A stretch of 64,000 bases of DNA from Lingula anatina. Its lineage: Eukaryota; Animalia; Brachiopoda. Location of the stretch: NCBI GenBank assembly GCA_051362555.1, contig CM120645.1, positions 1,674,001-1,738,000 on the forward strand, in the 5' to 3' direction. Within the stretch, counting starts at the first letter, position 1, and each line of letters opens with the position of its first letter. Below, one piece after another: positions 26,819 to 61,800 of the stretch. A program made the position numbers and the translations under genes. A model generated the notes under the pieces. The model saw only the letters and a list, made by a program, of their open reading frames with translations, was not told the DNA's origin and made no database searches.

Positions 26819-28750
26819 ATTGTTATTTTTTTTTATTATTATTTATTGCGGTTCAAGTACATTTTTTACAATGACTATGACCTAACAGTATACATAATAT
26901 AATCATATAACTAAAATTACAATAGTAAATTACAATATTGTTTATACAATAACTGTGATCAGATTTTACAATTGCAGTATACGCTCGTTACTTTGGTTGA
27001 CTAGGTGGTGGTTGGTTGAGAATATTTTTTCTTACCTTATTACACATTGTGATATAGTGGGCCACATTCTTTATAACATGTAAATCGTTTGACTGCATTA
27101 TGCATTTGAACTGACCCTCTGGGGTTTGTGTAGGATCTGGTTTTAGGATCTCCCTGTGTTTGGTGAGTAAGGGGCATTTTAAAAGAAAGTGTATTTCGTT
27201 TTCCACTTCATCTGAGCATAACTTGCAGATCCTTTCTTCAGGGGGTATTGATTTTGGTTTTCGGTATCTGCCTCTTTGGATTTCTAAGTCATGTGCCCCT
27301 GTTCTAAATTTTGCCAAATTTTGCATTTCATGTTTTGGTATAGGTGCTGTTGTGTACGCTTCCCTTTCATAATTTGTTTTAAATAATCGATATGTACGTA
27401 GTATGCTGTTTTCTCGCTCTATTTCTTTGAGAAACAAAAGGGTATAATGACTTTCCAGTGCTTTTTTTACTTCTGCTTTCGAGGGGGTATTAGTCTGTGT
27501 TTTCATTAGATTTTGAGTAATGTATTTGATTTCGCTTGACCAATTTTTTACCTGTGTATCCTGTTTTGTTTCATATTCATACATTGTTTTTGCCAAGCGC
27601 TGCTTTGGCATTTCAGAAAATCTTTGCCAGTAGGATGTAGCATGACCCATTATGTCATGTGTAATTGGGAATCTACCTAGTTCTGCTTTAGCTGCTATAT
27701 TACTGGCATTGCGCCTCACACCTAAAATGTATTTGCAATAGTTATTTTGTACTACTTCGAATGGCAAAGTATTCATGTATTTAAGAGATTTTATGCTTTT
27801 AGATGCGATTGATGGTCCCCAGATTTCGCATCCGTACATCAGTATGGGTTTTATAAGGATATCGAAGAGTTTTAAATATGTCTGGGTCATATTGTGGGTG
27901 GTGGACTGTAAAGCCTGCTTAACTGCAAAAACCGCCTTCATGGCTTTACCTTTCAGATCATCAAGTGCACTTTTGAATGATCCATTCGATTTGAATTTTA
28001 TCCCTAAATAATTATATTCATGTGTTATTTCTATTGTTTGATGGTCTATTGTGAAATTCATGTTTGGTTTTTTGCCTGACTTACTAAATATCATTACTTT
28101 CGTTTTGTTGGTATTGACTGTGAGCTTCCATTTTTTGCAGTAGTCCCCCAGATTGTCAAGACTTTTTTGTAGGCCCTTTGCAGATTTAGATAGAATAACG
28201 AGGTCATCAGCATATAAAAGGTGACTGATTGTAGTGTTGGCATTAATTTTTACGGGATCACATGTGCTATTGAATACATTTTTCATATCATCTATGTAAA
28301 TATTAAAAAGCATTGGACTCAAGCTGTCACCTTGCCTTATTCCTATATCTGTCTTAAAGTAGTTTGTGCGTCTTTGGCCAATTTTGACACACAGCTCTGT
28401 AGTTTGATACATGTGTTTTATTGTTCTATAAAAGTTTCCTCCTATTTTTTGTTTTAATACTTTGAGGAATAGACCTTCAATCCACACGCTATCAAAAGCT
28501 TTTTTAAGATCTATAAAACATGCGTATAACTTATTATTCTTATTGATGAATTGGTTAATAAGGCTGTTTAGAATGAACATATTGTCTGAGGTTCTATATG
28601 TAGGGCGGAACCCTGCTTGTTCTTTAGAAAGAGATTCACATTCTTCGATGTAGGAGAGAAGCCTGGTATTTAGAATTGAAGTGAAAAGTTTTCCTAAACA
28701 GCTGTTTATACAAATTCCTCGGTAGTTTTGTGGGTTCGAGGGATCTCCAG
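26819..28750 (-). mobile_element. 5'-truncated non-LTR retrotransposon (LINE, RTE-X-like), RT plus C-terminal CCHC-type region
   Basis: Open frame from 28748 (GDPSNPQNYRGICINSCLGKLF) to stop at 26988; RT motifs FIDLKKAFDSV, GIRQGDSLSP, YADD, YLGI; C-terminal ERICKLC...HFLLKC; A/TAA-rich 3' tail at ~26819-26847. No endonuclease domain present. Clade is inferred. Confidence 0.9.
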
Positions 28751-29450
28751 ACTAGTTATTACTTACTAGTGACCCAACCAAATAGTTTCATATACTTCAA
28801 ACAGGGTTTTGCAATTTTTTTGTCATTTTCCCAAAGTTCACAGCTTCTGAAAGTCAGAAAAATATTTGCTTGAGTCAGACTCTCGGGTTAATTGAAAGCA
28901 AACATTCAAATAAAAACTTAGCTGTTTGCAAAATAACTTGTGTTATTTTTCTGCTATTATTTATTTCTATTCTTAGAATTTGTGAAAGAATGCAATTCTT
29001 TTTATGTAGATTTTGTACATTCTTCCAATATCTTCCAATGAAAAATAACAGTATTTTGCAAATTCAACAAATATGATCCTATGTCATATTAAGACAAAAT
29101 TAGAAACCCTCATTGGTTAACATTCTCACCTGTATGTCAAAATGAACTGAAAAGTTAATAATGGTCACGTTTCATGAAACACATTAAGAAAACAGCTTAG
29201 CAGACATTAACACATAGCAAAACAAAAATGAAAAGCGGATGTATTTTTCTTACCAATGAATCAAAAATATACCACCCAAGAGCTTCGGAGAAACTGTAAC
29301 CCCTACGTTTAGTTTCTTCAGTTCACATCTTTTCCTATCAATATGCTTAGCTTTAAAACAAAACTTTTTGAAAAAGCAATTCACAACCTTACAGGTCCAC
29401 TACAGAGAAGGAAAATTGTGGATTGGATGTCATCCCTCAGCTAAAAACAA

Positions 29451-36705: not shown

Positions 36706-38442
36706 ATGAATATGGATATAGCAGGGGAAGTAGAAAAGATAAAAACCCTGTTTGGCAAAGGAGTGAAGATTATCAAGGATGTTGGAGATTTCCTATATGT
36801 GATAGACATCAAACCAAATGCAGAATGGGATCTAACCTTCAAGTTTCAGATTCCAAGTATGGACATTTTTTACTTCTTGTATGTTTAAATATGTGAAATA
36901 TTTTTATTTCTGAATCAATGAAAGATAGTGTAAAAAACAAAATTTCTTACAATTCAATGTGTCATTTTATATTTAATGAGTATTTAAGAACTCAGGAGAA
37001 ATCATTCTTGGTAAATTCCGGATGTATAAACTTGCCATTATCCATATAAATATCTGTTTTCAGAAGAAACAGGATCAAATATATCAGAAGTTATTGCCAG
37101 ATCACAGGCCCTGGACATGGAGCAGTTATCTGAATTGTCCAAGCACCTGCAAGAAAAGCTGACCGGCAGTTGTGTCCAGGGAGAGTTCTTTGAAGAGGTT
37201 CTCACAGCAGGGCAGGAGTGGATAAAAAGCCACGGTCTTGAAGAACAGGTGGCCTGTACGACTTGTAAAGGATCAAAAGGGAACCCGACATGTAAAAAAT
37301 CCAAAGAAAAGAGAAAAAAGAAACCGAAAGAGAAAGAGGAAAAAGATGAAAAGAAACCATCAATGAAAACGGCTATGGACGTCATCAAGAGGATATTATG
37401 GGATGGCAGCCTGGACTCGGATGACTTTGTAATTGGTTACTTGGATCGTTTCCGTGGAGTCATTGAGAAAGATTTCTCAGAATTTTCATGGGAGGACATA
37501 GCCTCAGTAGATTACGACACATTAGCGATTCCAAAACATAGGATTGTATATTTCAAGTACAAGGACCTGATAGTGTGGCATAAGACCAGGAGATTTGACC
37601 ATGTGTTCGGGTCTGCGGGAAAACCCAGTAAGACAATCATGGAGGTGATTGACCAGTATGAAGAGAACTTGAAGAATAACAGGGCAGAGGAAGAGGAGGA
37701 AGAGGAAGCCGAAGGTTCTAGTCTAGACTCTGATGATGACAGCGATGATGGCATAGAAGTGACAATTGATACTGAGGAGAACAATCTTTGCCTTGATGAT
37801 GAAGGTGAAGAAGTCTGTGACAGTGAATACTGGACTGATAAGTTGAGACCCAATCACTTCATAGCTGTCCGAATAACCAGCCCAGACATCGTAGAAACGG
37901 TTGCAAACATCCAGGACGCCATCTTGGAAGTTGAACCCCGCTACGAGAGTTGCATAGTGCCCCCCAATGCTCTTCACCTAACACTATGTGTCCTACGATT
38001 GGACGGAAAGGAAGCAATAGCTCATGCAGTGGAAACTTTAAAATCAATTCAGTCCGAGTTGCAGGCCATAGCTGCAAAGGGAATCAAACTTCATCTCGAA
38101 GGGACTGGCGTTTTCTACGGCAGAGTGCTGTACGCCAAGGTCCATCACGAGTCAGTTTTCACTGAATTTCTACATCATCTCCAAGTCTGTCTCAGTGCAG
38201 AAGGACTCCCCATAAAAGATGCCCATGAATTTGTCCCCCATGTAACTATAATGAAAACCACACGCCCAGTGTCTCGACAACTGGGGACGAAGACCATTAA
38301 TCCCTATATCCAAGAGCATTTTAAGGACACGGTTTTTGGCAACCAGTGCATTCAGTCCATTCATTTGTGTGCTATGGGAGATGAGAGAAGAGAGGACGGG
38401 TTTTATATGTGTCCAGTCAGTTTAGACTTCTCTGTTCAGTAG
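36706..38442 (+). CDS. LENG9: LENG9-like protein: possible RWD-like N-terminus, MJ1316/DUF504 domain, acidic linker, AKAP7-like 2H phosphoesterase
   Basis: Exons 36706-36856 and 37064-38442 join in frame (phase 1). MKTAMDVIKRILWD...GYLDRF.G...IPKHRIVYFKY...W matches MJ1316; the two HxT motifs (LHLTL, PHVTI) are those of the 2H fold. Confidence 0.85.
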
Positions 38443-40824: not shown

Positions 40825-41499
40825 CTAAAATCCTGGATGCGGCAAATAACCCGGCGGCGAAGTTGTATCGTACAGTCCAGGCTGGAACTGGTGCGGGGGA
40901 GGTCCTGGGTACTGTCCCCCGCCAACGTACCGCATCCCCGCCATCTCCCCCGGACCAGGCATCCCGGGGAGGGGCAAACTTGGATACGGTGGTCCTCCGC
41001 CAGCTGGCGCGTGAGGAGACGACGTCATCGCATACAGGCCGTCGTCCTGAGAAGTTGGGGGGAATGATGTCGTAAATCCAGGGTGGGTCACGCCCAAATT
41101 CATGCTACCAGAGGGGGGTTGATATCCCCCCATTAAAGAATACTGACTCCCCCCGAGTTGAGATTCAGCTGTAGCGTACATAGCATGTTGCGGATGCTGC
41201 TGCTGGGGATATAAAGACGGCTGGGAGTTTTGCGGATATCCATACGGCTGCCCACCGGTATAAACCTGAGGTGGACTTGTGAGTAAATCCTGTGGCGGAT
41301 ACCCCTGCTGTGCGGGCACAGGAAGTCCTCCTACGCTGGGCGGATAATATCCGCCGGATTGCACTGGCATGACATCTTGCTGGGGCGGGTAGCCTGGTTG
41401 TGGCGCATAACCCCCCTGGACGGGCGTGTAACCCCCCTGTGAGGACGGGAATCCCCCCTGGGGAGGCGGGAATCCGCCCTGCGGAGGCAGATGCGACAT
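40825..41499 (-). CDS. Pro/Gly/Gln/Tyr-rich low-complexity protein (224 aa)
   Basis: GC-rich ORF with PPQGG(F/Y) repeats; acceptor tttcag before 41545; non-coding exon 1 ending at 42952 (AAG|gtaagt) downstream of TATAAATA (43054-43047). Confidence 0.75.
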   Translation of the reverse strand: MSHLPPQGGFPPPQGGFPSSQGGYTPVQGGYAPQPGYPPQQDVMPVQSGGYYPPSVGGLPVPAQQGYPPQDLLTSPPQVYTGGQPYGYPQNSQPSLYPQQQHPQHAMYATAESQLGGSQYSLMGGYQPPSGSMNLGVTHPGFTTSFPPTSQDDGLYAMTSSPHAPAGGGPPYPSLPLPGMPGPGEMAGMRYVGGGQYPGPPPHQFQPGLYDTTSPPGYLPHPGF

Positions 41500-41693
41500 T
41501 TGATGTTGTGTTGTTGATTCAAGGCGTCGTTTTCTCCGGGATGACCTGAAAGACGTTTATGAAACATATTGCATTAAATTGCGATTCAGTAAATTGGGCT
41601 CCTATTAGCAAAGTGTGCATCATTTCAGGTAATACAATAAAGTCCCACACTGTTAATTATGACATGACTAATGTCAACACATTCAACAAAATA

Positions 41694-44860: not shown

Positions 44861-44919
44861 CTAAAAATAGCATTCGCTGTTTGAGGCTATTTTTAGTAAG
44901 TAGGAAATCTCTTATAAAA
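44861..44919 (+). promoter_or_regulatory. Rho paralog 1 promoter: two MEF2-consensus sites + TATA
   Basis: CTAAAAATAG 44861-70, CTATTTTTAG 44887-96, TATAAAA 44913-19. Confidence 0.6.
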
Positions 44920-45074
44920 CTTGGCAGCATGGGTCTTTGCCGGACATAGGCAATTAAGTCAGACTTTATCGTCACAAACTGTGAAGAAGGGATCTAGAAA
45001 CAGAAAACACGTTGTTTGTTAGTTCAATATTTTTATTATTTTTTTTTCATTAAACTGTTTGACAGGAGATTCAA

Positions 45075-46474
45075 ATGGGGTTGTTTGCATGTCTAGGCGG
45101 TAATTCATGTGGTGAGTATATTCCTTTTCTCTTTACCAGTAAATAAAGTATAAAACGTGGTCATATATTGCAGAAAAAATATTCAGTAATGCTTTTTCAG
45201 TCGTTTATTTATTTGCTTGAATGATAAATAAATCGATAAATTGTCCGTGACTTTCTAAAGCCACAGTTCTCTCTAATTATCCGGTTATTAAATTGAAACA
45301 CTCGATTTACACACTGTTAAATCGAAACACTTGTTCGATAACTTGTTTTAAGAAATAACTTACCTACAAAATCTCAACCAATTAATTAAAACCAATAAGG
45401 AGAATAAGGTATCGAAGTATATTGTTCGCTTCTAACACCCCGAGTGTCGCTGTAGATAGATTGAAAGAGACTTCAAGTTACAGGGGTTAGCTATAGATTC
45501 AGATGACCTCGAAACTCAGGTGGTTACAGAAGACAACGGAGTCTTTCTGATTATATGGGGCTAGGTGAGATATCACTTTTTATCGGAGAGCTTTGGAAAA
45601 TCAAGATGACTTCTTTTAATTGCAGTTGAATAAATTACCCTCTCACCTTTCAGACGCAGATTCTACGGCGTACCCTATGAGAAAGAAGTTGGTGATTGTT
45701 GGGGATGGCGCCTGCGGTAAATCCTGCCTGCTCAACGTGTTTACACAGGACGACTTTACCCTCAGCTATATTCCCACCGTCTTTGAGAACTACGTAACAG
45801 ACATAGAAGTGGATGGAAAACAGGTGCGTCTCTTTTGCAGTATTTTTTAGAATTAAATTGAAAACTTGAGAGTTAAAATTGTCTTTTGTAAAATATAGCG
45901 TTCATTTGATTTTAGGTCGGTCGGTCTGTCTCTCTCTCTCTCATATATATCTCTACTATTTTTAAGTTGCATTAATTTTGTTATTTAAGATCGAGTCTCT
46001 CTCTCTCTCATATGTCCCTACTGTTTTTAATCAGAATTAATTTTGTTATTTTAGATCGAGTTGGCACTTTGGGATACTGCCGGGCAGGAAGATTACGACC
46101 GCTTACGGCCCTTATCTTATCCCGATACTGACGTCATACTGATGTGTTACTCCATCGACAGTCCCGACAGCCTGGCCAACATCGCCGAAAAATGGGCCCC
46201 GGAGATCAACCATTTTTGTCCCAATGTTCCTGTAGTTCTAGTGGCAAATAAAAAGGACTTGAGAAAAGATGAAGAGATCATTACTGAACTGGCAAAACTG
46301 AACGAAAAACCGGTGGATTACATGGCTGGGGAAGACACTGCGGCAAAAATTGGTGCTTTTTCTTTTCTTGAGTGTTCGGCGAAAACGCGAGAGGGCGTTA
46401 GGGACGTATTTGAGACTGCCACGAGAGCGACGTTATTGAAAAGGAAACGCCGTAAGATCCATCGCAGATGTTAA
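45075..46474 (+). CDS. Rho: RhoA-like small GTPase paralog 1 with N-terminal MGLFACL extension and no CAAX (208 aa)
   Basis: Exons 45075-45111, 45654-45823 and 46055-46474 with GT-AG and matching phases; [41 protein letters not shown]; ends [11 protein letters not shown]. Confidence 0.9.
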
Positions 46475-47251
46475 TTTTTTTTCACTCTGTTCTAAAGAAA
46501 TTTGTCATGAGTGATGCTGGGCAAAGAGAAGCAAAGTAAAGACAATCATGGTATTAAAAAATAAATATATTTCAAGTAATGCTGCAATACCTTCTGCTAT
46601 ACATGTACAATTAGGCTATATGTGGCATCAGTGTTTTTTTTTTGTTTTTTTTTTGTTTTTTGTAATTATACACATTAAGTGTCTTTCATAATAAATATTT
46701 GTTGTTAACCAACCGTTAAGTTTTGACATTCGATAACTTTCAGTTTTTTTTTGGATGAATTACAATCGCGATTTTTCTTAACGATATTTAAGGCATATAA
46801 ATGGTGTTTCCAGACCCTCGTCATCTGTGAAGAATATGACTCTTAAACTATAAAATTGATACTATTATCGAGGTCTTGTCAGTAAATGTGCAAGCGCGCA
46901 TCTCTCTTTTTACTATAATCACAACCTTACAGTATAGCCCAGTGGCGACCCTCTCTCCCACCGCTCTCTCCCACTTTCATTCCATCATAGTAAACGACAG
47001 CAACAAAGAATAACAATATAATGTCTACCAACAGGCCTGCTGTCAGCAACCGGGTCTCTTTTTGCCGAAAACTGGACCTTTCCCTCCCCTCAGTTGACCC
47101 AGCATAAGAAATGACATACATGTAGAACTCAGATCAAGTATTGATTCAGAGGGGACCTTTTCTTGCCAAAAAGACGGGTTTTAACCCCACACCAGCTCGC
47201 CCCGTCTACGGACGTGGGCCTTATATGTTTTTTACAACTTTTTTTATAATA

Positions 47252-48913
47252 CAGACTTGACATTTAATATGGAATATTTCAGTTTCGAAGGTATGCCTAG
47301 GTAAAAATTCGTTCTTTTTTAAAAAAAAAACCGATCTCATATAAGATTTGTGAATGGAGAAGTGTGTAGTCAGGTGTGTCGCTACCAATTAACTGACTTC
47401 CATGTCTGTTGCGCTGCTACATTATGTAAAATGCGGTGATTTAATTGGGTAGTGTTCTTTTGGGCTGGTCAATGCTTGGCTTAGGCAAATCTTGGTTCTG
47501 TCAAAAAAATATCCGTATGTCGGCAACTATTCCATAGAAGAATTTGAAATTTTGCATGCAAGCGGTCAGTTTTGCAGTGCGTAAAATGAGCTAATGAGTG
47601 CTTTACAAATTTGTAAATTTGTGGCAGAATGGCGCGAAAAAGACAGACACTACCAGACAGATTACAGCGCCAAACGGAACGGTCCGCACAGTTTTATAGA
47701 GTAATACCCAGACTGATGTAACTACACAGAGGTCACACCCAATGCATCGAAATCTTATCTCCAGGGTTCAGGACCCACTGTCTTTCGGGATACGCAGCTG
47801 CAACTAAACAAAAGCCACCCAGTCTGTTCAGAACGAGGGGTAAATTGCCACCACAATGCGTTTTTCAAGGCCCTTAACGAGCACCAAACTGGTTTTAGCA
47901 GGTTAGAATACCAGATGACCTGCGAGGTACCCACTGTAAACAGCAAAACATCGTCGTCTGTTTCTCTAATAAATTGGGGGCCATGACCGTTTCTGGGTAG
48001 AACACTGAAACCGCGTGGCTTTCTTTATTGAGGTCAGATTTCACCTGTACCTCCCAGCTAGTCAAAACAGAGTTTACAGACATCCAGAAGAGGCCTACGA
48101 CGAAGCATGTACCGCGTGTAAAGTGACACGGGTCATTGACAGCGTCAGTATTTGGAGTGGATACCACATTGGTGCCAAAACACCAATGGTAGTCATTGAC
48201 GAAAACCTGAACCAGATCAAATAAAGGAATAATCTGGGAACCACTTGACTATCATTTGATAGGGGGCACCTTAGGAACAATTTTAGGTTGCACGGTCAGA
48301 TTGCCGGTTCACACAGAGCACTTTTAATAGCAGATAACTTACAGAACCAAGGGAATGAGCAGCTACCCTGGTCATCAAAATCGCGACATTTGAACCGCAT
48401 AGACAATATGTGGGTAAGCCATTACTCGCCGAATCAACTGCTTACATGCCCTACATCAAAACTGGACCAAATTGGACAATTTTGGACCGATGCCTGGAAT
48501 AATATTCCAGATTGAACTCTAAAAACTTTTCCCAAGGAATGCCTTGCCGCTTGATAGCACTGGTAACAGACAGAAGAGGCCAGGCGTAACAGCGACCGTT
48601 ACTATGACTACACACTGACATGAGGGTCCATTGTGTAGCGTATAACTCTTTTACAGACGATAATTTTGAAAATATAGAGATCCAAAATATCTCTTTTAAT
48701 GGATGTCGTATGACATAGAATAGGCAATGTATTTCTGTTTGCCTCACTGTCGAATTCAACCAATGAGCTGGTGTCAGCATGACATCAAAGAGATAATTTA
48801 AAGTTATTAAAACACGAATTTAATCCTTATTTTCATTTATCAGTCAGCAAAATAGCAAAAAACTGATGAAAAATGACTTGGAAAAAAATATTCCATATTA
48901 AATGTCAAGTCTG
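47252..48913 (+). mobile_element. Degenerate Tc1/mariner transposon
   Basis: TA-CAGACTTGACATTTAATATGGAATATTT TIR at both ends; fragmented transposase (FIEVRFHLY...RVYR; SVSIWSG; LPWSSKSRHLNRIDNMW resembling WPxxSPDLNPIExxW). Confidence 0.88.
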
Positions 48914-50004
48914 TATAAACGAGATAAGTAATAAGTGATTTATCGGTCAGGGAGTAGCCTAAATGGCTTGACCAAAGTAAAGGTCAGTTTTTAGAGTCAC
49001 CTAAATTATCACTCGTGGGAGTAATTGTCATCTGAACTAGCAATTTAACCTTAAGTATACCAAATTAAAGCTAGATAAAATCAAGCAACTTTTTTCATCG
49101 CTACCTTTCAGTAAAATTGATGTGTCATAGCCCATGGTAATGTAATGATATATTTAATAGTTGTTGGGAGTTGGGAAACACACTCCCCTTGAAAGAAAAT
49201 AGAGAGTAGATAAAAAGTCGTCAGTCAGTGAGCTGTGGGTTTTTATGATAGTCCTTCACTCTTCATGGTTCGTTACACAACTAATGTGTATATTCCCTGT
49301 CCTGGTGAAAATAAAGGAAGGAAAATGAAAAGCCCCATTTTCACAAATGCCAATAATATTGATAAGATTTAAAAATAATAATTATTACTTCGATTACTAT
49401 ATTGTTATAATAAATATATACATAAATGGAAGAATTAACATGTAAATAAACCAATGCAAAAAGTTGTCTTTATATTTATTTTCTATTGCAACATGACTGA
49501 AAATGTGTAAAATAAGAAACAATACGACACCAAAAAAATACAGTACATCGACATCATTTCGTAAAATTAACCGCGATGAATAATTAATTTTAAAACGATG
49601 TATAAATTAATATTAAAACATTTTATAAAAAGCGTTATGTTGCTAGTGGCTTCGACACTAGAAAATATATTCATTATTTACAATAACAAAACAAAATGCT
49701 AACAGCCAATTAAGACAGGAAAAAATACCAACCACACTTTCAAATACGTGTGTAATATTAAATTTAAAAAAAGCTAATTTTAAGTTAAAACAGATAAAAT
49801 GTAACAACAGTGTCAACAATCAGCCGACCTCTATCGCCGAAAATTGTTTTTTATTATTTAGTTCAAAAAATTTTTATAATCTACAATTTGATGAGAGAGA
49901 GAGAGAGAAAGAGAGAGAGAGATTTGACATGTTAATATGCAAATAATGATAGTGCAAAGGCTTTGCACAGCAATCTTCCAAAAAATCTTAACCCAGTCAT
50001 TACC

Positions 50005-50061
50005 CTATAAATAAACCACACAGTGAGGCTATTTTTAGCATTACGGACCTCCATTATAAAA
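50005..50061 (+). promoter_or_regulatory. Rho paralog 2 promoter: MEF2-consensus sites + TATA
   Basis: CTATAAATAA 50005-14, CTATTTTTAG 50029-38, TATAAAA 50055-61; same spacing as paralog 1. Confidence 0.6.
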
Positions 50062-50167
50062 GAGCGTGGTTCGCCCGGCTAGTCATTTTCTAGCGCGAGA
50101 GAATCACAACAAAGATCACAGATAAATATTGTAAATAACAGGTACATATGTTTTTTGAACCACGACG

Positions 50168-51666
50168 ATGGGATTGTGGTCGTGTCTATACAATGGTGAG
50201 GAGTAACTCTCGTTTTCATTTTTTGATATTATTTTACTATTACCTTTAAAAATAAATATCTAAATACAAAGTAACATTTTTAAATGATTATTACAGATCA
50301 GTTTAACGTTGTTTCCGCGTTGAACACTATTTTTATTGATGTAATACTGTTCTTGTGTTATCTGAGGGCAGTATAAAAGATGGGAAAATGATGACTTAGC
50401 GAGGATACGAGAGGAATTATAAATTATTTGCGATAATATTTGCTCAGACAGAGAGAGAGAGAGAGAGAGAGAGTTAAATGCTATTATTCGGCAAGTGGAA
50501 TACATTTTTATTTTCAGATAGGTCTTCTAAAGCTCATCAGCCACGCAAAACAATAATCATTCTTGGAGACGAGGGTTGTGGAAAATCTTGTCTAGTCAGC
50601 GTTTTCACAAAGGGCAACTTCGCCACAAAACGTCTTCCTGTCCCTTCCACGAGTAATATTTCATACATAGAAATTAATGGCAAAATGGTTATTATTTTTT
50701 CATGTGGACAAACGACAGTTTAAATGTTGAGCTGCATATCGTCTCAGCCCACATTCTCATTATCAACAATATCAAAAAATCTTACATATATTTTGTTTGT
50801 TCCACACTTGAATAATAAAGAAAAACGTCTGTTTTAAACTTGATGCAGGATCCGCTTGATAAAAGCGAGAAATTTCAAAATTTTACATTTTATATTTCAT
50901 ACATAGAAATTGTTGGCAAAATGGTAATTATTTTTTTATTTGTTGCGCTGCATATCATTTCAGCCCACGTTCTCATTATCAACAATATCAAAAATCTTAC
51001 ATTATTTTGTTTGTTCCACACTTGAATAATAAAGAAAAACGTCTGTTTTAAATTTGATGCAGGACCCACATGATCTCTGTGTTAATCCCCCCCTCACACG
51101 AAACCCTATCATTTTCAAGAGTGAATATCGAGAAAGTAAATTGTGAGTGTGGTATTTATATCTTTAACTGTTATATCATATTTTTTTAACTTTTTGTTTT
51201 ACTTTTAATACTTTAAAAACTTATTGCTTCTGTATCAGAAATGCCGATTTTGAAAACTTCCTTCCAGATTGAACTTATCCTCCGAGAGCCAGCGGGGCTA
51301 GATGACATCACCAGGCTTCATTCCCTTTCAGGCAGCAAAAAGGACGCTGTTTTACTGTGTTATTCAATTGACGATCCCGGCAGTTTTCAAAATGCCTCAT
51401 ACAAATGGGCACCAGAGATCAACAAACGATGCCCGGATGTTCCCATTGTTTTAGTTGGAAATAAAAAGGACTTACGAAATGACAAATTTACTATTTGTGA
51501 ACTAGGGACTCTACACGAACAACCGATTGGTTGGCAAGCGGGACAAAAAAGTGCGGAAAAGATACATGCGTTTTCTTATATGGAATGTTCAGCAAAAACG
51601 CGGGAAGGAATTCGAGAGTTGTTTGAGACGGTAGCAAGAGCGGCGGTGTCGAAAAAGGAGTGTTGA
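50168..51666 (+). CDS. Divergent Rho-like GTPase paralog 2 with N-terminal MGLWSCL and no CAAX (198 aa)
   Basis: Exons 50168-50195, 50518-50687 (170 nt, same length as paralog 1 exon 2) and 51268-51666; GDEGCGKS, EPAGL, NKKD, CSAK; ends SKKEC*. Confidence 0.85.
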
Positions 51667-52521
51667 ACTGTTGTTCGGAAATAATAATTATTTTTATTAT
51701 TACTCAGGAATAATCTAAGCAAGTCAGCACGGCTGAAAGTGCTTACATATTAATTTAACAAAGTGCTACCGTATCAATAGTTACATTATGAGGCTTCCCG
51801 AAGGACGCGTTTTCCTGTAATAAGCAATTAAGCATATTTTTAAATAAATTCTTAAAAGTATTAAGTGAAGCAACATCCAAGTTCGCCGTTTATTTCTCCA
51901 TACTTGATTCACTGATTATTGTCAGAGTCTATCTTTAGTTGTATTCAGTCCTGATATTACTCAACTTTATTTTCATAATCCGATTTAACAAGGAACTTAT
52001 TCTTCTCTGTGGGCATACCTTTAATCCACTGTGATTTTGATTTCATTTTGTTTCCTAACATAAGCCATTCATGTTATCAAAATGCATTGTGGTGTAATTG
52101 GTAAAAAAATGCCCAACTTAAATGATTTTTTAAAATATGAACGAAAAACGCTTTTTAAAGGCCTGTATTACTATCTCTGTAAGTTTTGACAAAGATATCA
52201 AATATCAATCAGTTTGGAAATAGTTATAGGTATTAGGGAATTCTTGCTCGCTTATTTTCTCTTCGAATAATGCATAAATTATGGACAATGAAATATTTAT
52301 TTTTCATGTTGATATTTCATTCAACTTGATAATATATATTGTTTATCACAGTATATGTAGAGATACATGCATAATCTTCATTTCAACTTTCTGTTCTGTC
52401 ATTCGGCTTTGTCAATAAACTTACAACATTTTGGAAGAAAACTGCAGTCTTTAGCAACACAGCTAGGCTCGGGCAGATCATCCCTCCAGTTCAGTTTTTG
52501 GTATTGCCCAAATCTTTAACT

Positions 52522-52665
52522 TTAACAAGAAATAGAGACCTTGAAGGCCCCTTCGTTGCCATTATACCCGTGCACACCTATTGCATACGTCCCATTGGAT
52601 AGGCATCCCTTAAGGATCTGGAGCAGAGAGGTCCAGTCACAGCTGAAAAAGTCGTCATTCTTGTA
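52522..52665 (-). pseudogene. Partial tandem duplicate of the terminal exon 3' end (plus 3' UTR to ~52340)
   Basis: KNDD...TSLLQI..G.L..G.Y.IGV...G.F..SISC* parallels 52887-53030; the UTRs also align. Confidence 0.7.
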
Positions 52666-52886
52666 CATACTGTGATCGTGGTGGATGTTGCATGTTCTTT
52701 TTTTTTTTTTTTTTTTTTTTTTGTATATGTAGAGATACATGGATAATCTTCATTTCAATTTTCTGTATTCCATAATTGGGCTTCGTCAATAAATTTAAAT
52801 TATAGAAGAAAATTGTAGTCTTTAGAAACTCAGCTTGACTCGAGTAGATCATCCCTCCAGTTCAGTTTTTGGTATTGCTCATATCT

Positions 52887-55800
52887 TTAACAAGAGATAG
52901 ATATATTAAACAAGCCAAAGGTAGTGAGCTCCGAGTACACACCTATTACATACGCCCCAATGGGTAGGTCTCCTTGCGGGATCTGGAGCAGAGAGGTTAA
53001 GCCGGAGCAAACGGGACTGTCGTCATTCATGAGCAAAAAGTGAAACCCGGGGATGCCGCATCTCTGAAGTCCATCGGGTTTAATATAAAGCGTCGCATCA
53101 CAACCAAAAAGAATCACCACCGTGTCGAAGTTGGTGGCATTGCATGTGGATATACTGATGTTGTTACACCCCGAGTAAGTGATGCTGTATAGCAACGGTA
53201 CCAGACCGTCAGCAGCTCGATAGCGGTTGCTGAAGGTGTAGGTTGTACCGTCACACCTGACTTCTCGAACGTCCGCTGTAAGTGTAAATATAATTTTTAA
53301 ACTGGCATTTGACTTTCACATTGGCCACAATATTTTGCAATAATAATGATAATTTATGCAGCTACCACAAATATATAATTTCCGAAATTGGACTCTTAAA
53401 GTTCTTAAAAGTGAAATAACAATACGAATAATAATAAATAATAATAATAATAATTTAAAAAAAATAATGAAGTTTAATACTAGTATGTTAAAAGATTAAT
53501 GGCATAATATACAAAAAATACAGTAAGTAAAAAGTAGGGAAAGCATAAACTAAGCTGCTTACGACCCCAAACAGCATGATATTACATTGCTTTTTATGTA
53601 CAGACACACCGTGCCTGGTGTACAGGGACACATTGTGTACAGTGGAACATTTCCAGACAAAACTGGATAACTTCCTTGCTAGGATACTATATATATATAG
53701 ACCAACCCACGCTGGTGGCCAACATAAGGTGGAAAAAAATAGCAAGTAAGGAGAAAGTAAGTAAAACCCCTTTTACACTAGACGGCGTCCTTTCTGCGTC
53801 CCGTACGTAGTACGGCCCTGTTCGAGAGTAAAAAAAAACTTAACTTCCCAACAACTTGCAGATCAATGAGTATTGATTCTACAACCACGGCGATGCCAGT
53901 TTCATGGTCGCACAAAGGACGCAGAAAGGACGCCGTCTAGTGTAAAGGGGGTGTAAGTAAGAAAGTAAACATTATATGATATTGTATCAAAGTCGAAGAA
54001 AACCATGTTTTGGGCACCGATGCTTCAATGTCCAACAAAGGAAAACTTTGTTACTTATGATTCTCAAACATACAGAAAAGTTTCATAGAACTGAAGTACA
54101 GCTTGAGTACGTTGGAAAACCATATATTTATAATTTCATTATATTTCTGGAAGAAATGCATTTTTTTTTTTTTTTTTTTGCAAAAATGTTGGACTTTGAA
54201 CTCCCACTGGCATGAAGCCTTATGGTAGTTATATATTCTTAGTGTCCACGTTAGGCCACACTTTTTTAATTTTATGGATGACATCCTGCGCGCGCACGGA
54301 TTTTCGCCCGTTCTCCAAAAAAAAAAAAAAAAAGCCCCCCCCCCAGCCCCCAACGAAGTCGGTTGTCGCAAACGTCGTTATTGAATTTGCAAGGAAAGAG
54401 CTTTCTGCGCATGCGTATTTTTGCCACGTGGAAATGCGGCCACTTTGCTGTCAAATTCATCTCTAGGATTACTTTCAAATTACACAACAACAGAAGTCAT
54501 AAAGAGAACGGGCGCCATCGTTTTGGATTGGTATGCCATTGATATTGGGCATGGAGATATAACCTTTTTACAATTGTGCGAAAGGCTGGCGGCGGCCGAA
54601 ACATTTCTGTGACATTCTGTACAAAGCAGCACATTAATACCAGGTTTTCTGTACATAGCGAAAAAAGGGTCGACAAAGGCGTCGAGGTATTTGGTGGGCT
54701 GAAGGTCGGACAGGCCACCTGACAGTTTAGCTGCTTCGTGTGAGTTGAAGTTGACAAAATGTCGTCGTCCGAAATGACTTTTAATAGATTTGGTAGTATT
54801 AAGCATATCTTTGCATCATTTTTTAAACAGTTCTGTGAAGTGTTCAAAATGCTTTAAAATTCTGAGAATACAAATAAAGACATACTGTTTGATTGATATT
54901 TGTTTTATTGATTGTTGTACCAAATGAATGCATGAAATAACCTTAAATAGATTTGGTAATATGAAGTATATCAATTCATGACTTTTTTTTACATTTCTAC
55001 GAAGTATTCACAATGCTTTAATATTTTGAGAGCATGGATAAAGACATATTGTTAGTTTGATACGTGTTTCTGTGGTTAAATTTGTGTTTCCAGCTGTGTA
55101 CTGACAGCATTCCTTTACTTAAGCAGTTTTTTTTTTTTTTGGACTGTTTTTTTTTTTCGCCCTCTCGCACCGATTTTGGGGTACCCAGAGGATGTCATCC
55201 ATAAAAATAAAAAAGTGTGGCCTTAGATAAATTAAAAATTGGTGGTGACTATGCTTTGTTGTCAAGCATAATGTATTATTGCATCAAAACTGTCAAAAAT
55301 TTTTTTTGCATTATTGTATGTTCATTTGATAGTTTTGCTGCTTTATTGACTTCCCTTTCTACACACTGAGGTAAAAAAATAGATGCCATACTTACGACAA
55401 TTTATAGCTGAAAAAATTGATAAGAAGAAATATAGTAGATAAGTACATTAATGATATACTGTATATACACATACTGGACAATAGGAGTGTCACCCCTACT
55501 GAACCAATACTTTGGGGGAGATAAATGACTGTGCAATGATGTGCTCCTGGTATCATTTTATTAACATCAAATTTCACAAAAAGACCAACAAAACAATTCC
55601 ATGGTACAGCAGTTTTATACTCATTTAGTCGCATTATATGTAGATCAGGCATTATAACTTTGATTACTCTGTTTCAGGGGGTGACACTTCTATTGTCCAG
55701 TGTGGGTACAAGTAATCAATATATTTTACAACTTCTGCCACCACTTCTGACGATAAATTTATGTTAAGATACATACCAACAATTTTTTGTTCACTGCGTT

Positions 55801-58800
55801 TTTTAATGATCCTATAACGTGAATCGTAAGGTAATATTCATTACCACAATTATTTTCAATTTTAAAAGACATATCTTACATGCAATTAGCTTGTAGTGCT
55901 TTTTTTGCACACTGGTATGTGGGCTATAGAAAATGCACTGTGCCTGAGATTATATATAAGACATCTGAGACCTTAACTAATTTAAAAATCAGTTAAACGA
56001 GGCAGCATGTAGTCTAAATACATTTTAAGAAAAAACAAAAAATAAACACACATACAAGTTTGTCTACACTGAGGAAAAATTAGTATTAAATAATTTTGTG
56101 TTAAATGTGATATCATACTTACGACATTGTAGGTCAGTATCAGCTGAAAACGTGAAAAGATGTATGTGCAAAAGTACACGAAAATATTCACACAATCATG
56201 TGCATATTCTGCCAAAGATGTTTATATATTTTATATGTTGGTATAGATATGAATAATGAACTGTATTCTTTTGACAGTAAAATATATAACTCTGTAGACT
56301 ACTGAGTATTTCTATACAGCAAATAAAATTTCCCGCTCCACTGCTTTTTTGTCGAACCCATTAGACGAACGATGATAAAAACCAACTAGTTTTACCAATT
56401 ATTTTCTATTTCTGGCTATAGAAAGATAGCAGTAGAGAGGACATGTTTGCAAATCAAATGTATATTTGATGTAATACTTACGACATGTCGGCATTTCTAG
56501 AGGAAAAAGAAAGGCAATATTAAATACAATGGAGTACCACTTGAATATATAATCATTCAAACAATTATCATTTAAACATTGACATTTTCGTCATTTCAAC
56601 TCCGGCGACAAATGTATGCTATCCTTTAAAAATAGAGTTAAGGTGATTCGATCAATGAAGCCATATAATAAAAGACAAAATAGTGGAATTTAATGCTGAA
56701 TTACCTAAAGAAAAAGGTTTTCACGGAACCCAACTTTAACACAGATGTTCATAGATAACTATGTGAGGGAGTGGAGCAGTTAAATACGATTGGGCCACAC
56801 TTTTTTATTTTTATGGATGACATCCTCTGGGTACCCCAAAATCGGTGCGAGAGGGCGAAAAAAAAAAAAACAGTCCAAAAAAAAAAAAAAAACTGCTTAA
56901 GTAAAGGAATGCTGTCAGTACACAGCTGGAAACACAAATTTAACCACATAAACACGTATCAAACTAACAATATGTCTTTATCCATGCTCTCAAAATATTA
57001 AAGCATTGTGAATACTTCGTAGAAATGTAAAAAAAAAGTCATGAATTGATATACTTCATATTACCAAATCTATTTAAGGTTATTTCATGCATTCATTTGG
57101 TACAACAATCAATAAAACAAATATCAATCAAACAGTATGTCTTTATTTGTATTCTCAGAATTTTAAAGCATTTTGAACACTTCACAGAACTGTTTAAAAA
57201 ATGATGCAAAGATATGCTTAATACTACCAAATCTATTAAAAGTCATTTCGGACGACGACATTTTGTCAACTTCAACTCACACGAAGCAGCTAAACTGTCA
57301 GGTGGCCTGTCCGACCTTCAGCCCACCAAATACCTCGACGCCTTTGTCGACCCTTTTTTCGCTATGTACAGAAAACCTGGTATTAATGTGCTGCTTTGTA
57401 CAGAATGTCACAGAAATGTTTCGGCCGCCGCCAGCCTTTCGCACAATTGTAAAAAGGTTATATCTCCATGCCCAATATCAATGGCATACCAATCCAAAAC
57501 GATGGCGCCCGTTCTCTTTATGACTTCTGTTGTTGTGTAATTTGAAAGTAATCCTAGAGATGAATTTGACAGCAAAGTGGCCGCATTTCCACGTGGCAAA
57601 AATACGCATGCGCAGAAAGCTCTTTCCTTGCAAATTCAATAACGACGTTTGCGACAACCGACTTCGTTGGGGGCTGGGGGGGGGCTTTTTTTTTTTTTTT
57701 TTGGAGAACGGGCGAAAATCCGTGCGCGCGCAGGATGTCATCCATAAAATTAAAAAAGTGTGGCCTTGGGTTTATTAACTCCCTCGATTATGTTGAAATC
57801 AGAACAAAACAAAAAGGAGTCCATAAGGTTTCCTTCAAATGGTAACACAATTTGAAAAGAAAAGTATAAAGACTAAGTTTCCTTCTAACTTTAGAACTAA
57901 TATCTCAACCTCAAACCCCCTCCCCCTTTCGTAATGGTACAAATACACAATGCAGTACTGCACCAATGCAATAAAGCCTATAACTACCAGTTCTCACCTG
58001 GAACGCAATTTTGTGGATCTGGATCAGAAGAGTTGAACATGTATCCCTCTTCACAAACACAGACCCGAGGTTCTGGACAAGGTAAACTTTGACCTTCTTC
58101 ATTGGTAGTATTCTGACAGTTTGACACTGTATTGTTATCCACTATCTCACAACATCTGGTATTATTACCACACACAACTGGGGGCCTCACTTCAATATAT
58201 GAAACAAAAGACAAAACTCATGAATAATTTTAGAACATTATTTTAGAACTCATTAATTTTAGGACATTGTGGCAAATTCATGCTTATATGTACTTATACT
58301 TCTAACATGGGATACAGTGTGCCATAAAGAGTAATGCCAAATTCCACCCACTGCGTTGTGTGATGACTGGTATACAACACTTGTTTTCCAACCAGTGTAA
58401 ATTACAATGCTACATGTCACTTGTACTTATATACAAACCATGATTAAAAAATATTATTTTCTATATATTGTTATAAGATCTAAAGTTTAATAGTGAAGTC
58501 ATATGTACAATATACACATGTGTACAGGTTTAAGTGCGATAGTATTAAAATCATGAACAAAATCACTGAGAGTGTCTTACTCTTCCGTGAAAAGGAAAAA
58601 AAGCAGAAGTTTAACCAACAATGGGAGTTCTCACCTGGAACGCAATTTTGTGGATCTGGATCAGAAGAGTTGAACATGAATCCCTCACCACAAACACAGA
58701 CCCGAGGTTCTGGACAAGGTAAACTTTGACCTTCTTCATTGGTAGTATTCTGACAGTTTGACACTGAACTGTTATTCACTACCTCACAGCATCTGGTATT

Positions 58801-61800
58801 ATTACCACACACAACTGGGGGCCTCACTTCAATTAATGAAACAGAAGTCAAGACTCGTGAACACAGGGAAATGAATTTAGAACGTTATTTTAGAACTCAT
58901 TAAATTTAGAACACTGTGGCAAATTTATTGTGTTCGTGGGTTTATACTTCTAACATGAGATACAGAGTATCATACGCAGCATTCCCTGCACAAAATACAT
59001 ACAAAATTCAACTAGAATTGAAAGATTTAAAAACAACAACACTGAGCCCCTGACGAGGGTATTAAAATTACAACCGTAAAATCACAAAGAATTCCTTACT
59101 CTAAGTTGAATTGATAAAAACAAACATAACATCAAATGGGTTTTTTATGTCGAGTTATAATTTATTCAAGGACCAATGTTTAAAAAGAAAAGTATGAAGT
59201 ACTAACTTTTCATCAAACTTCAGAACCAATATGTCGACTTCAACCCCCCCCCCTTTTTCTTAATGGTGGTAATGGTACCGCACCCACGCAATAAAATCTA
59301 TAACTGCCAGTTCTCACCTGGAACGCAATTTTGTGGATCTGGATCAGAAGAGTTGAACATGTATCCCTCTTCACACACACAGACCAGAGGTTCTGGACAA
59401 GGTAAACTTTGGCCTTCTTCATTGGTAGTATTCTGGCAGTTTGACAGCGTACTGTTATCCACTATCTCACAGCATCTGGTATTATTACCACACAAAACTG
59501 GGGGCCTCACTTCAATTTATGAAACAAAAGACAAAACTTGTCAACACAGGGAAATGAATTTATATAGATTTCATTTTGAAACATTATGTCATGATCATTG
59601 CATTTCTGTGTGTGTCCTTCTAAGACGAGGTACAGTGTGCCATATAAAACATTGCTAAATTTCACCCTCTTTGACAAGGATGTCATCCGACATTTTCCAA
59701 CCAGTGTAAATTACAAAGCTACATGTCACCCTTACGTAAACCATGATTAAAATTTTTATTTCGACATTCTGTTATAAAATCTAAAGATTAATAATGAAAT
59801 CATCTGTACAACATATACATGTTTTCAAGTTTAAATAGGGTAGTATCGAACCAACAAAAACAAATCATTGAGAGTGCCTTACTCTTCCTTGAAAAGGTAA
59901 AAAAAAAACACAGGACTTTAGCCAACAATGGGAGTTCTCACCTGGAACGCAATTTTGTGGATCTAGATCAGAAGAGTTGAACATGTATCCCTCTTCACAC
60001 ACACAGACCCGAGGTTCTGGACAAGGTAAACTTTGGCCTTCTTCATTGGTAGTATTCTGGCAGTTTGACACTGTACTGTTATCCACTATCTCACAGCATC
60101 TGGTATTATTACCACACAAAACTGGGGGCCTCACTTCAATTTATGAAACAAAAGACAAAACTTGTCAACACAGGGAAATGAATTTATATAGATTTCATTT
60201 TGAAACATTATGTCATGATCATTGCATTTCTGTGTGTGTCCTTCTAAGACGAGGTACAGTGTGCCATATAAAACATTGCTAAATTTCACCCTCTTTGACA
60301 AGGATGTCATCCGACATTTTCCAACCAGTGTAAATTACAAAGCTACATGTCACCCTTACGTAAACCATGATTAAAATTTTTATTTCGACATTCTGTTATA
60401 AGATCTAAAGATTAATAATGAAATCATCTGCACAACATATACATGTTTTCAAGTTTAAATAGGGTAGTATCGAACCAACAAAAACAAATCATTGAGAGTG
60501 CCTTACTCTTCCTTGAAAAGGTAAAAAAAAACACAGGACTTTAGCCAACAATGGGAGTTCTCACCTGGAACGCAATTTTGTGGATCTAGATCAGAAGAGT
60601 TGAACATGTATCCCTCTTCACACACACAGACCCGAGGTTCTGGACAAGGTAAACTTTGGCCTTCTTCATTGGTAGTATTCTGGCAGTTTGACACTGTACT
60701 GTTATCCACTATCTCACAGCATCTGGTATTATTACCACACATAACTGGGGGCCTCACTTCAATTTATGAAACAGAAGTCAAAACTTGTCAACACAAGGAA
60801 ATGAATTTAGAACATTATTTTAGAACTCATTAAATTTAGAACACTGTGGCAAATTTATTGAGTTCATTTGTTTATACTTCTAACATGAGATACAGTGTAC
60901 CATACACAGCATTCCCTGCACAAAATACATGCAAAATTCAAAAAGAATAGAAAGATTTTAAAATAACAACACTGAGCCCCTGACGAGTGTATTAAAATCA
61001 CAACCTTAAAATCATAAAGAATTCCTTACGCTTAGTTGAATTGATAAAAACAAACATAACATCAAATGGGTTTTTAAGAACAGTTTTTATGTCGAGTTAT
61101 AATTTATTCAAGGACCAATATTTGAGAAGAAAAGTATGAAGTAAAAACATTCCATCGAACTTCAGAACCAATATGTCGACTTCAACCCCCCCCCCCCTCT
61201 TTCCTAATGGTGGTAATGGTACTGCACCCATGCAATAAAGTTTAACTGCCAGTTCTTACCTGGAACGCAATTTTGTGGATCTGGATCAGAAGAGTTGAAC
61301 ATGTATCCCTCTTCACACACACAGACCCGAGGTTCTGGACAAGGTAAACTTTGACCTTCTTCATTGGTAGTATTCTGGCAGTTTGACACTGAACTGTTAT
61401 TCACTACCTCACAGCATCTGGTATTATTACCACACACAACTGGGGGCCTCACTTCAATTTATGAAACAGAAGATGAAACTTATTAACAAAGGGAAATTAT
61501 TTTATGAATTCTTTTATTTAAGAATATTGCGCAAGTCCATTGTGTATCTGGGTTTGCATGTACTTCAAACATGACATACAGTGTGCCATACAAAACATTG
61601 CCAAATTCCAACCACTGCGGCAAGTGACAACTGGTATACGACACCCATTTTCCAACCAGGGTAAATTACAATGCCACATGTCACTTATTTACCAACCATG
61701 ATTAAGAATATTATTTCTACAAATTATGCTAGAAGATATGAAGTTTAATATTGAAGTCATCTGCACAAAATATACATGTTTACAAGTTTAAATAGGGTAG

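Follow-up and report, generated by a model that had tools for sequence, protein, structure and literature searches.

Tandem RhoA paralogs of the brachiopod Lingula anatina with a predicted N-terminal acylation tag and no CAAX box

Introduction

Can a RhoA-type GTPase reach membranes without a prenylated tail? RhoA normally depends on geranylgeranylation and on shuttling by RhoGDI for its targeting. The question is raised by a 64,000-nt stretch of DNA (the window, always meant at its full length) from the brachiopod, or lamp shell, Lingula anatina, in which two RhoA paralogs, gene 1 (45075-46474) and gene 2 (50168-51666), are tandem neighbours on the plus strand. Both begin MGLxxCL, and neither ends in a CAAX box. 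An earlier note on this DNA had proposed that both exchanged C-terminal prenylation for N-terminal acylation. Our analysis points the same way for gene 1, whose product likely reaches membranes by an acylated N-terminus instead of a prenylated tail; we give this reading, in which lipidation and localisation are predicted from sequence, a probability of roughly 0.62. Below, P numbers denote protein records and X numbers RNA runs.

Structure and transcription of gene 1

Gene 1 is divided into three coding exons. The first (45075-45111, 37 nt) ends at a G|gtgagt donor and encodes 12 residues that are the same in RefSeq P0001. Exon 2 (45654-45823, 170 nt) carries the P-loop and switch I and has an Ala codon at the position of the ancestral ATG, and the coding part of exon 3 (46055-46474) carries switch II, G4, the Rho insert, G5, a polybasic tail and a Cys-stop without CAAX. 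The open frame of 208 aa ends in TGT TAA, and the protein matches RefSeq XP_013388299 (P0001, 208 aa) at 207 of 208 residues. The last exon was 99% identical to this record, and the next-best matches were generic RhoA proteins at no more than 74%, as scored among the 7996 candidates sharing most words with it. All four introns of genes 1 and 2 are GT-AG, the first of each gene in phase 1 and the second in phase 0. The G|gtgag donor and the in-phase 170-nt exon 2 described by the earlier note are present in both genes.

Transcription was followed in the raw reads of six of nine same-species RNA runs, using 6-30% of each run (X1, X4, X7 and X9 for gene 1; X2, X4, X7 and X8 for gene 2). Six reads crossed the exon-1 joint of gene 1 at 45111/45654 (two in X7 and four in X9, none listed in X1 or X4), and 11 reads crossed the joint at 45823/46055 (four in X1, five in X4, two in X7); besides these two, no joint was listed in the four runs. 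Skipping of the Met-Gly exon, which the earlier note had named as fatal to its proposal, is not what these reads show, and the small first exon predicted for gene 1 is spliced in. The depth of exon 1 was close to that of exon 2 in X7 and X9, and read depth began in the bin 44904-45004, right after a TATA box at 44913. Reads of X7 crossed the stop into the 3' untranslated region, as far as about 46700, and all four X7 reads at 46474 had two extra T after the stop. No change to the stop codon was found among the 40 difference rows listed (80 further rows exist). Depth was mostly 1-9, indicating low expression. A 69-nt tandem duplication (45928-46061) spans the acceptor of intron 2, so that a decoy copy lies about 67 nt ahead of the acceptor at 46055 that the reads use.

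Partial alignments at about 46130-46170 (27 reads in X1, their loose end read by eye) continue as canonical RhoA, so a canonical RhoA gene is present elsewhere in the genome. No Lingula member was found among the rows listed for 10 large RhoA clusters. In X7 and X9, the gene 1 reads derive from a diverged population, and the 13 coding differences used comprise nine silent and four replacing changes; three rows at 46138-46165 do not enter this count, as the loose end at 46170 identifies them as canonical RhoA. In exon 3, four replacing changes over 153 sites stand against seven silent changes over 48 sites, or about 0.18 replacing per silent change (a ratio calculated by hand). Gene 1 is real, expressed and constrained.

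The N-terminal exon

The MGLxxCL exon is predicted to act as a tag for N-myristoylation at Gly2 and S-acylation at Cys6, possibly also at Cys12 in gene 1. The motif of N-myristoyltransferase (NMT) is given as M-G-[^DEFRWY]-X-[^DEKR]-[ACGST]-[KR], with Lys or Arg at position 7 preferred, not obligatory, and an S6C peptide retained myristoylation and was apparently palmitoylated on Cys6 (PMC9018777). Positions 2, 3, 5 and 6 of both genes fit this motif, and position 7 is Leu. Five of the first seven residues are common to genes 1 and 2, the linker after the tag is not conserved, and Gly2 is encoded by different Gly codons in the two paralogs.

The 170 nt of exon 2 consist of 14 nt followed by 156 nt that run from the ancestral RhoA Met to GKQ. 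Since the codon at the ancestral Met position specifies Ala in both genes, neither can produce the short form by initiating there. Met21 of gene 1 arose anew and does not correspond to the ancestral start; it is missing in gene 2 and in P0235, a third paralog in RefSeq, and gene 2 has no internal Met. The ATG at 45075 has A at -3 and G at +4, compared with C and A around Met21 (a weak context), and it is the first ATG downstream of the likely transcription start. An earlier ATG at 44929, just behind the gene 1 TATA box and probably before the transcription start, opens a 6-codon open reading frame (ORF) starting Met-Gly-Leu-Cys, and a weak out-of-frame ATG lies at 50148, 20 nt before the gene 2 start. 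A Met-Gly at the real start of translation, as in SH4-type proteins, is borne out for gene 1 by the joint reads and the position of the first ATG; for gene 2 it comes from the sequence and the RefSeq model.

The C-terminal tails

What the two genes have in common is the absence of CAAX, not a shared loss of the aaX residues. The polybasic run and Cys-stop of gene 1 recur in P0001 and P0235, so that the Cys-stop of gene 1 is not a sequencing error. P0235, on the RefSeq scaffold, is a paralog close to gene 1 with a different first exon. For gene 2, the tail of the RefSeq counterpart P0121 is KKKCPTVVRK, and the window reads C-stop-T-V-V-R-K-stop there (51661-51684: the Cys codon, a premature TGA and the TVVRK-stop codons still translated in P0121). 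Because the window codons past the stop match the P0121 tail, the Cys-stop of gene 2 is a local nonsense change. The tail of P0121 also lacks CAAX, and the tail Cys of gene 2, about seven residues upstream of that of gene 1, is not terminal in the RefSeq copy. The earlier note had correctly read a Cys-stop in both genes of the window but had treated the pair as one feature that argued against sequencing error, an argument that fails for gene 2. Loss of aaX from both genes in a single event was rejected on the RefSeq tail of the gene 2 counterpart. An older model, P0350, shows the last exon of gene 2 twice, a copy number that differs from the window.

An alternative last exon supplying CAAX, the other outcome that the earlier note had regarded as fatal, was not found within the window. 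A tblastn search across the 64 kb returned no Rho exon besides those of genes 1 and 2, and the last exon of gene 2 is without CAAX. Three downstream stretches with basic residues and a CXXX-stop show no Rho similarity and were rejected as alternative CAAX exons. The last exon of gene 1 contains a donor-like GT at 46452, and reads run through it. Compared with the tail of the RhoA subfamily, gene 1 has the polybasic run and lacks CAAX in the window, in two RefSeq models and in the reads over the stop; it is therefore a variant paralog and not a canonical RhoA member.

GTPase domains and the decay of gene 2

Gene 1 keeps G1, Thr37, DTAGQ (with Gln63), NKKD, CSAK and the Rho insert. Its G domain aligns without gaps, matches Pfam Ras at 3.6e-52 and shows 70-74% identity to the RhoA rows. 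Among the 120 matches listed, those with names were RhoA/B/C or Rho1 and the rest were unnamed hypothetical proteins. The sequence and structure matches are RhoA and give no sign of descent from Rab5 or Rheb, and the G domain is RhoA-type, not the Cdc42-related type of RhoU/RhoV. Residues 23-35 (RhoA numbering) are changed, which could alter the effector choice of gene 1. The RhoGDI contact residues, as given in PMC8253491, are kept (T37, V38, A61, Y66, R68, L69, L72, E97, E102, H105, F106). Because gene 1 keeps these protein contacts, any independence from RhoGDI would come from loss of the prenyl group alone.

Gene 2 is real as a sequence, but it encodes a degenerate GTPase, which the earlier note had missed, and is nearly silent. 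Its first coding exon (50168-50195, 28 nt, G|gtgagg) encodes MGLWSCLYN. Exon 2 (50518-50687, 170 nt) has a P-loop with G14E and A15G and a replaced switch I in which T37, F39 and N41 are lost, and the coding part of exon 3 (51268-51666) has EPAGL for DxxGQ, keeps G4 and G5 and ends in a short tail and the Cys-stop. The protein (198 aa, MGLWSCLYN...AVSKKEC-stop, TGT TGA) is 51% identical to gene 1, and its RefSeq counterpart XP_013388306 (P0121) has the same start, with the first 15 residues identical. Because gene 2 and this counterpart are not identical, the window comes from an assembly other than that used for RefSeq.

The roles of the residues concerned are well established in RhoA. In both the window and P0121, gene 2 carries G14E, A15G, T37V, F39S, N41S, W58R, D59E, T60P and Q63L, with REPAGL in place of WDTAGQ, so that the Gly14, Thr37 and DxxGQ expected of the RhoA subfamily are not intact. 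Gene 2 is predicted to be hydrolysis-dead, to bind Mg2+ poorly and to be blind to effectors. Among solved structures, P0121 best matches a RhoA chain in which position 63 is likewise Leu.

Reads on gene 2 were few (two each in X4 and X7, about two on exon 3 in X2), and three reads of X8 were gene 1 reads by their loose ends. In X2, 5-9 unspliced reads across intron 1 and exon 2 carried six replacing and two silent changes; their probable source is a degenerate copy or allele. On these reads gene 2 is at most barely expressed. The small first exon claimed for it agrees with the sequence and is taken from the RefSeq model P0121; the joint at 50195/50518 was found in none of the four runs. A tandem duplication of 83% identity (50656-50860 and 50892-51074) covers the 3' end of exon 2 and the start of intron 2 and brings a second donor near 50923.

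Common origin of the two genes

Genes 1 and 2 share a common origin. They differ by a proportion of silent differences (pS) of 0.70, with about 2.1 substitutions per silent site (dS) and 0.40 per replacement site (dN); dN/dS is about 0.19, with silent sites close to saturated. Trees of the G domain, built without a Rac or Cdc42 outgroup and without a Rnd or RhoH row, grouped the two at 99/95 and 97/97 (in the second, the bootstrap was unsettled). A clade of Lingula with the nemertean Lineus was neither recovered nor rejected (p-AU 0.40).

The paralogs also have a promoter element in common. In gene 1 (44882-44919, plus strand) it consists of a 15-nt motif with a MEF2-like site, a 16-nt spacer and a TATA box, and gene 2 (50024-50061, plus strand) has the motif and the TATA spacing as in gene 1. 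The 15-nt element followed by 16 nt and TATAAAA occurs exactly twice in the window (44882 and 50024) and had no match in 100 shuffles; on this pattern we regard the two promoters as homologous and constrained. Expression in muscle would be a guess from the MEF2-like site.

Origin of the N-terminal tag

Relatives were gathered with a profile of six Cys-bearing starts and by cluster look-ups. RhoA long forms with a short hydrophobic-Cys start and a CAAX box were found in an octopus, a chiton, three mussels, several oysters, many beetles and many moths (P0057, P0243, P0245, P0178, P0247, P0275, P0311, P0388 and cluster members). The tag lies 13-18 residues before the first strand, and most tagged long forms are annotated beside a short form of 192-193 aa. 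A census of 301 distinct full-length Rho proteins gave 205 short forms with CAAX, 46 proteins with a Cys tag and CAAX, and 46 with other extensions or tails. The Gly2 motif with Cys and no CAAX occurred in two, both from Lingula (P0001 and P0121), so the N-acylated Rho subfamily proposed by the earlier note was an overstatement. A Cys tag without Gly2 or CAAX occurred in two others, Lineus longissimus P0214 (XP_064649103) and an unnamed, probably truncated record. This Lineus Rho has an N-terminal Cys and lacks Gly2, the ancestral Met, CAAX and a tail Cys; it is possibly a second anchor swap. When 50% representatives were scanned with this N-terminal profile in HMMER, the matches were mostly gene-caller fragments, and the best 150 included no new MG-Cys Rho.

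Other octopus-like and chiton-like records diverge from the long form 4-5 codons ahead of the ancestral Met, which is where a phase-1 joint 14 nt upstream of that Met would place the break; the divergence point in mussels is one codon further, and moths differ. On this indirect evidence, homology of the Lingula exon with the mollusc tag exon is the reading we tentatively favour; the insect tag is possibly convergent. The N-terminal Cys tag appears older than the loss of CAAX. In mollusc models P0236, P0243 and P0351 and in the Mytilus isoforms P0245/P0353, the last exon is present twice, which suggests alternative last exons with different polybasic/CAAX tails.

We found no description of a Cys-tagged Rho1 long isoform in a partial literature library that covered main texts without supplements. 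The passages of PMC4669188, PMC7600811, PMC8670706 and PMC8393718 contain no mention of one; extensions may be shown in their supplements or figures.

Anchor swap and alternative explanations

A stepwise exchange of prenylation for N-terminal acylation seems to have reached its end state in Lingula. In lophotrochozoans, RhoA would already have possessed a coding first exon, used optionally, whose hydrophobic-Cys tag marked a long isoform still ending in CAAX. In a Lingula duplicate, loss of the downstream ATG would have made this exon obligatory; Gly2 would then have been gained and CAAX become dispensable. In the gene 1 product, Gly2 would be myristoylated co-translationally and Cys6 S-acylated, and the polybasic tail would help to hold the protein at the plasma membrane or Golgi. 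It would not be prenylated and would be released by depalmitoylation, not by RhoGDI extraction. An old second duplication would have given rise to gene 2, which kept the tag and promoter and lost Mg2+-binding and hydrolysis residues; it may be a fast-evolving, GTPase-dead pseudo-GTPase or may be in decay. What appears to be the intermediate, a long isoform with both Cys tag and CAAX, is found in tractable animals (Tribolium, Bombyx, oysters and Octopus), and the stepwise route is therefore testable. The swap proposed by the earlier note fits gene 1 in its spliced exon, first ATG, agreement with NMT positions 2, 3, 5 and 6 and lack of CAAX; the part argued from the Cys-stop of gene 2 was wrong.

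A broader version can be put forward only tentatively, and we hold it to be rather doubtful as a whole. The RhoA/Rho1 long isoform of protostomes (molluscs, beetles, moths, perhaps ticks) would carry an N-terminal S-acylation tag as a second, reversible anchor, from which Lingula, and perhaps independently Lineus, made prenyl-free paralogs. Gene 1 would then be the first natural myristoylated, prenyl-free animal RhoA, acting outside the RhoGDI cycle and possibly in muscle, and gene 2 a membrane-bound pseudo-GTPase derived from it.

Several observations weigh against the swap in gene 1 and its extension to gene 2. The exon-1 joint of gene 1 was seen in its six reads within a single study, and P0235 lacks CAAX yet is modelled without the Met-Gly exon. 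Gene 2 differs from P0121 at 22 of 198 residues, compared with 1 of 208 for gene 1 and its RefSeq copy; no joint and no exon 1 read of gene 2 were found in the four runs, and the P-loop Lys is changed to Asn in all six of the unspliced X2 reads there. The grouping of genes 1 and 2 joins long branches. The census is biased toward tags, its third search having been built from Cys-tagged starts; the homology of the tag across phyla rests on short motifs and on indirectly placed introns, and the moth joint appears elsewhere. To the same side belong the absence of Gly2 from all 46 tagged, CAAX-bearing mollusc and insect proteins, the Leu at position 7 where the NMT motif has Lys or Arg (PMC9018777), and the polybasic run with terminal Cys in three copies of gene 1 (window, P0001 and P0235).

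These last three points feed the alternative that survives best, namely that S-acylation alone may be what matters. Gly2 would be unmyristoylated, with palmitate on Cys6 and/or a polybasic tail with an S-acylated terminal Cys, and the swap would be from prenyl to palmitate. S-acylation of the terminal Cys of gene 1 might provide an anchor in its own right, as it does in RhoV. Lineus P0214 combines a Cys tag with the lack of both Gly2 and CAAX. Yeast Rho3 is palmitoylated at Cys5 (PMC4393305), and RhoV is palmitoylated only (PMC8253491). Under this reading, the long isoforms of molluscs and insects would probably be held by palmitate too. We nevertheless consider this explanation unlikely, since Gly2 is present in both paralogs despite different Gly codons and saturated silent sites, positions 3, 5 and 6 fit the NMT motif, and the tail Cys of gene 2 stands at a different position and is not terminal in RefSeq.

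Another possibility is that both genes are relaxed duplicates of a long-isoform gene, in which CAAX was lost as the proteins became soluble, nuclear (by the polybasic tail) or subject to decay, and in which the N-terminal motif is left over. The low depth of gene 1 (mostly 1-9, against 27 partly aligned canonical RhoA reads in X1) and a copy number that varies between assemblies (P0235, P0350) would agree with this, as would the near silence of gene 2, its lost switch motifs and the nonsense change in its tail. For gene 1, with every G motif in place and a replacing-to-silent ratio of about 0.18 in exon 3, the explanation is improbable. The frames of both genes are open, the paralogs have dN/dS of about 0.19, and tag and promoter element are conserved over dS of about 2. 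For gene 2 it carries considerably more weight, while still falling short of the likelier account. That the gene models are artefacts, with ordinary proteins encoded by transcripts that begin at the internal MRKK ATG or have a last exon supplying CAAX, is very improbable: an in-frame Met21, the donor-like GT at 46452 and the apparently duplicated last exons of mollusc RhoA genes (P0236, P0243) speak for it, against the exon-1 joint reads, the reads through 46452 and the stop into the 3' untranslated region, the lack of any other listed joint, the same ends in RefSeq, the lack of an internal Met in gene 2, and a last-exon search that covered the 64-kb window and found only that of gene 2, without CAAX.

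Other features of the window

Between the two genes, 31-nt perfect inverted repeats flank about 1.67 kb (47249-48916), and many reads from other copies end at 47249; the element is probably a DNA transposon. A transposase-like remnant at 47895-48248 was recognised by eye and has no Pfam match. Downstream of gene 2, a 284-nt tandem duplication of 77% identity occupies 52351-52632 and 52723-52997.

Upstream of gene 1, a 470-aa ORF (37030-38442, plus strand) has MJ1316 and AKAP7 2'-5' RNA ligase-like domains, a 587-aa reverse-transcriptase ORF (26988-28751, minus strand) resembles a long interspersed nuclear element (LINE), and a 243-aa frame rich in Pro, Gln, Gly and Tyr (40825-41556, minus strand) has no Pfam match. 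A large inverted duplication at about 54000-57800 includes identical ORFs at 54480-54815 (minus strand) and 57205-57540 (plus strand). Several near-identical Cys-rich frames stand in tandem at 57984-60833 (minus strand); one was tested and had no Pfam match.

Comparison with known systems

Gene 1 resembles RhoA/Rho1 in G1-G5, Thr37, Gln63, the Rho insert and the RhoGDI contacts, and differs in having no CAAX, an obligatory MGLxxCL exon, a lost ancestral Met and changes at RhoA 23-35. Gene 2 differs further by the loss of switch I/II and hydrolysis residues. Rnd and RhoH are atypical GTPase-deficient Rho proteins, and gene 2 is like them in substitutions at the RhoA Gly14 and Gln63 positions that block hydrolysis. 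It differs from them in its descent from the gene 1 lineage and in the further loss of Thr37 and Asp59.

Replacement of one lipid anchor by another is established in Rheb, Rab5 and other Rho proteins, and the end state described here comes from one genus. In plant ARA6, C-terminal prenylation has been replaced by N-terminal acylation. The same replacement is described for Plasmodium Rab5b (PMC4912828). As in Lingula, the swapped Rab5b and ARA6 paralogs coexist with a canonical protein, but they belong to the Rab5 family and are old and widespread in their lineages. Euglenozoan Rheb has lost CAAX and gained predicted myristoylation and palmitoylation, with myristoylation shown for one protein, and dual-anchor intermediates with an N-terminal Cys and CAAX occur in five protist groups (PMC5869587). 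As is proposed for gene 1, a CAAX-prenylated type of Ras-superfamily GTPase thereby exchanged CAAX for predicted N-acylation (PMC5869587). Rheb is a Ras-family protein of protists, often with a FYVE domain, whereas the Lingula gene is an animal RhoA paralog whose tag apparently came from an alternative first exon.

Within the Rho family, the language-model look-alikes of gene 1 in the ESM Atlas were headed by fungal RHO3 clusters; the look-alikes are generic Rho clusters, and the match serves as a lead only. Yeast Rho3 keeps its CAAX and is not known to be myristoylated. A palmitoylated Cys near its N-terminus is needed for plasma-membrane localisation (PMC4393305). Rho3 is a fungal paralog and not RhoA proper, and it is closer to the long isoforms of molluscs and insects than to the Lingula end state. 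RhoV/Chp is not prenylated, has a C-terminal Cys with S-palmitoylation shown, and is bound in non-prenylated form by RhoGDI-3 (PMC8253491). In most microsporidian Rho proteins, C-terminal cysteines replace CAAX, and S-palmitoylation is predicted (PMC13393502). RhoV/Chp and microsporidian Rho1 are thus prenylation-free Rho-family proteins, as proposed for Lingula (PMC8253491, PMC13393502), but their acylated Cys is C-terminal, with no N-terminal myristoylation reported in the parts of these articles available, whereas the Lingula tag is N-terminal.

No natural N-myristoylated animal RhoA, and nothing on Lingula Rho genes, was found in the same partial library without supplements. An engineered counterpart is Lyn-tagged Rac1(C189S), which reaches the plasma membrane and supports uptake without CAAX, the C189S change blocking RhoGDI binding (PMC2602895). 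The need for the prenyl/RhoGDI cycle has so far been probed with such engineered Lyn-tagged GTPases; if our reading of gene 1 is true, a natural RhoA with N-acylation would test that need in RhoA signalling itself.

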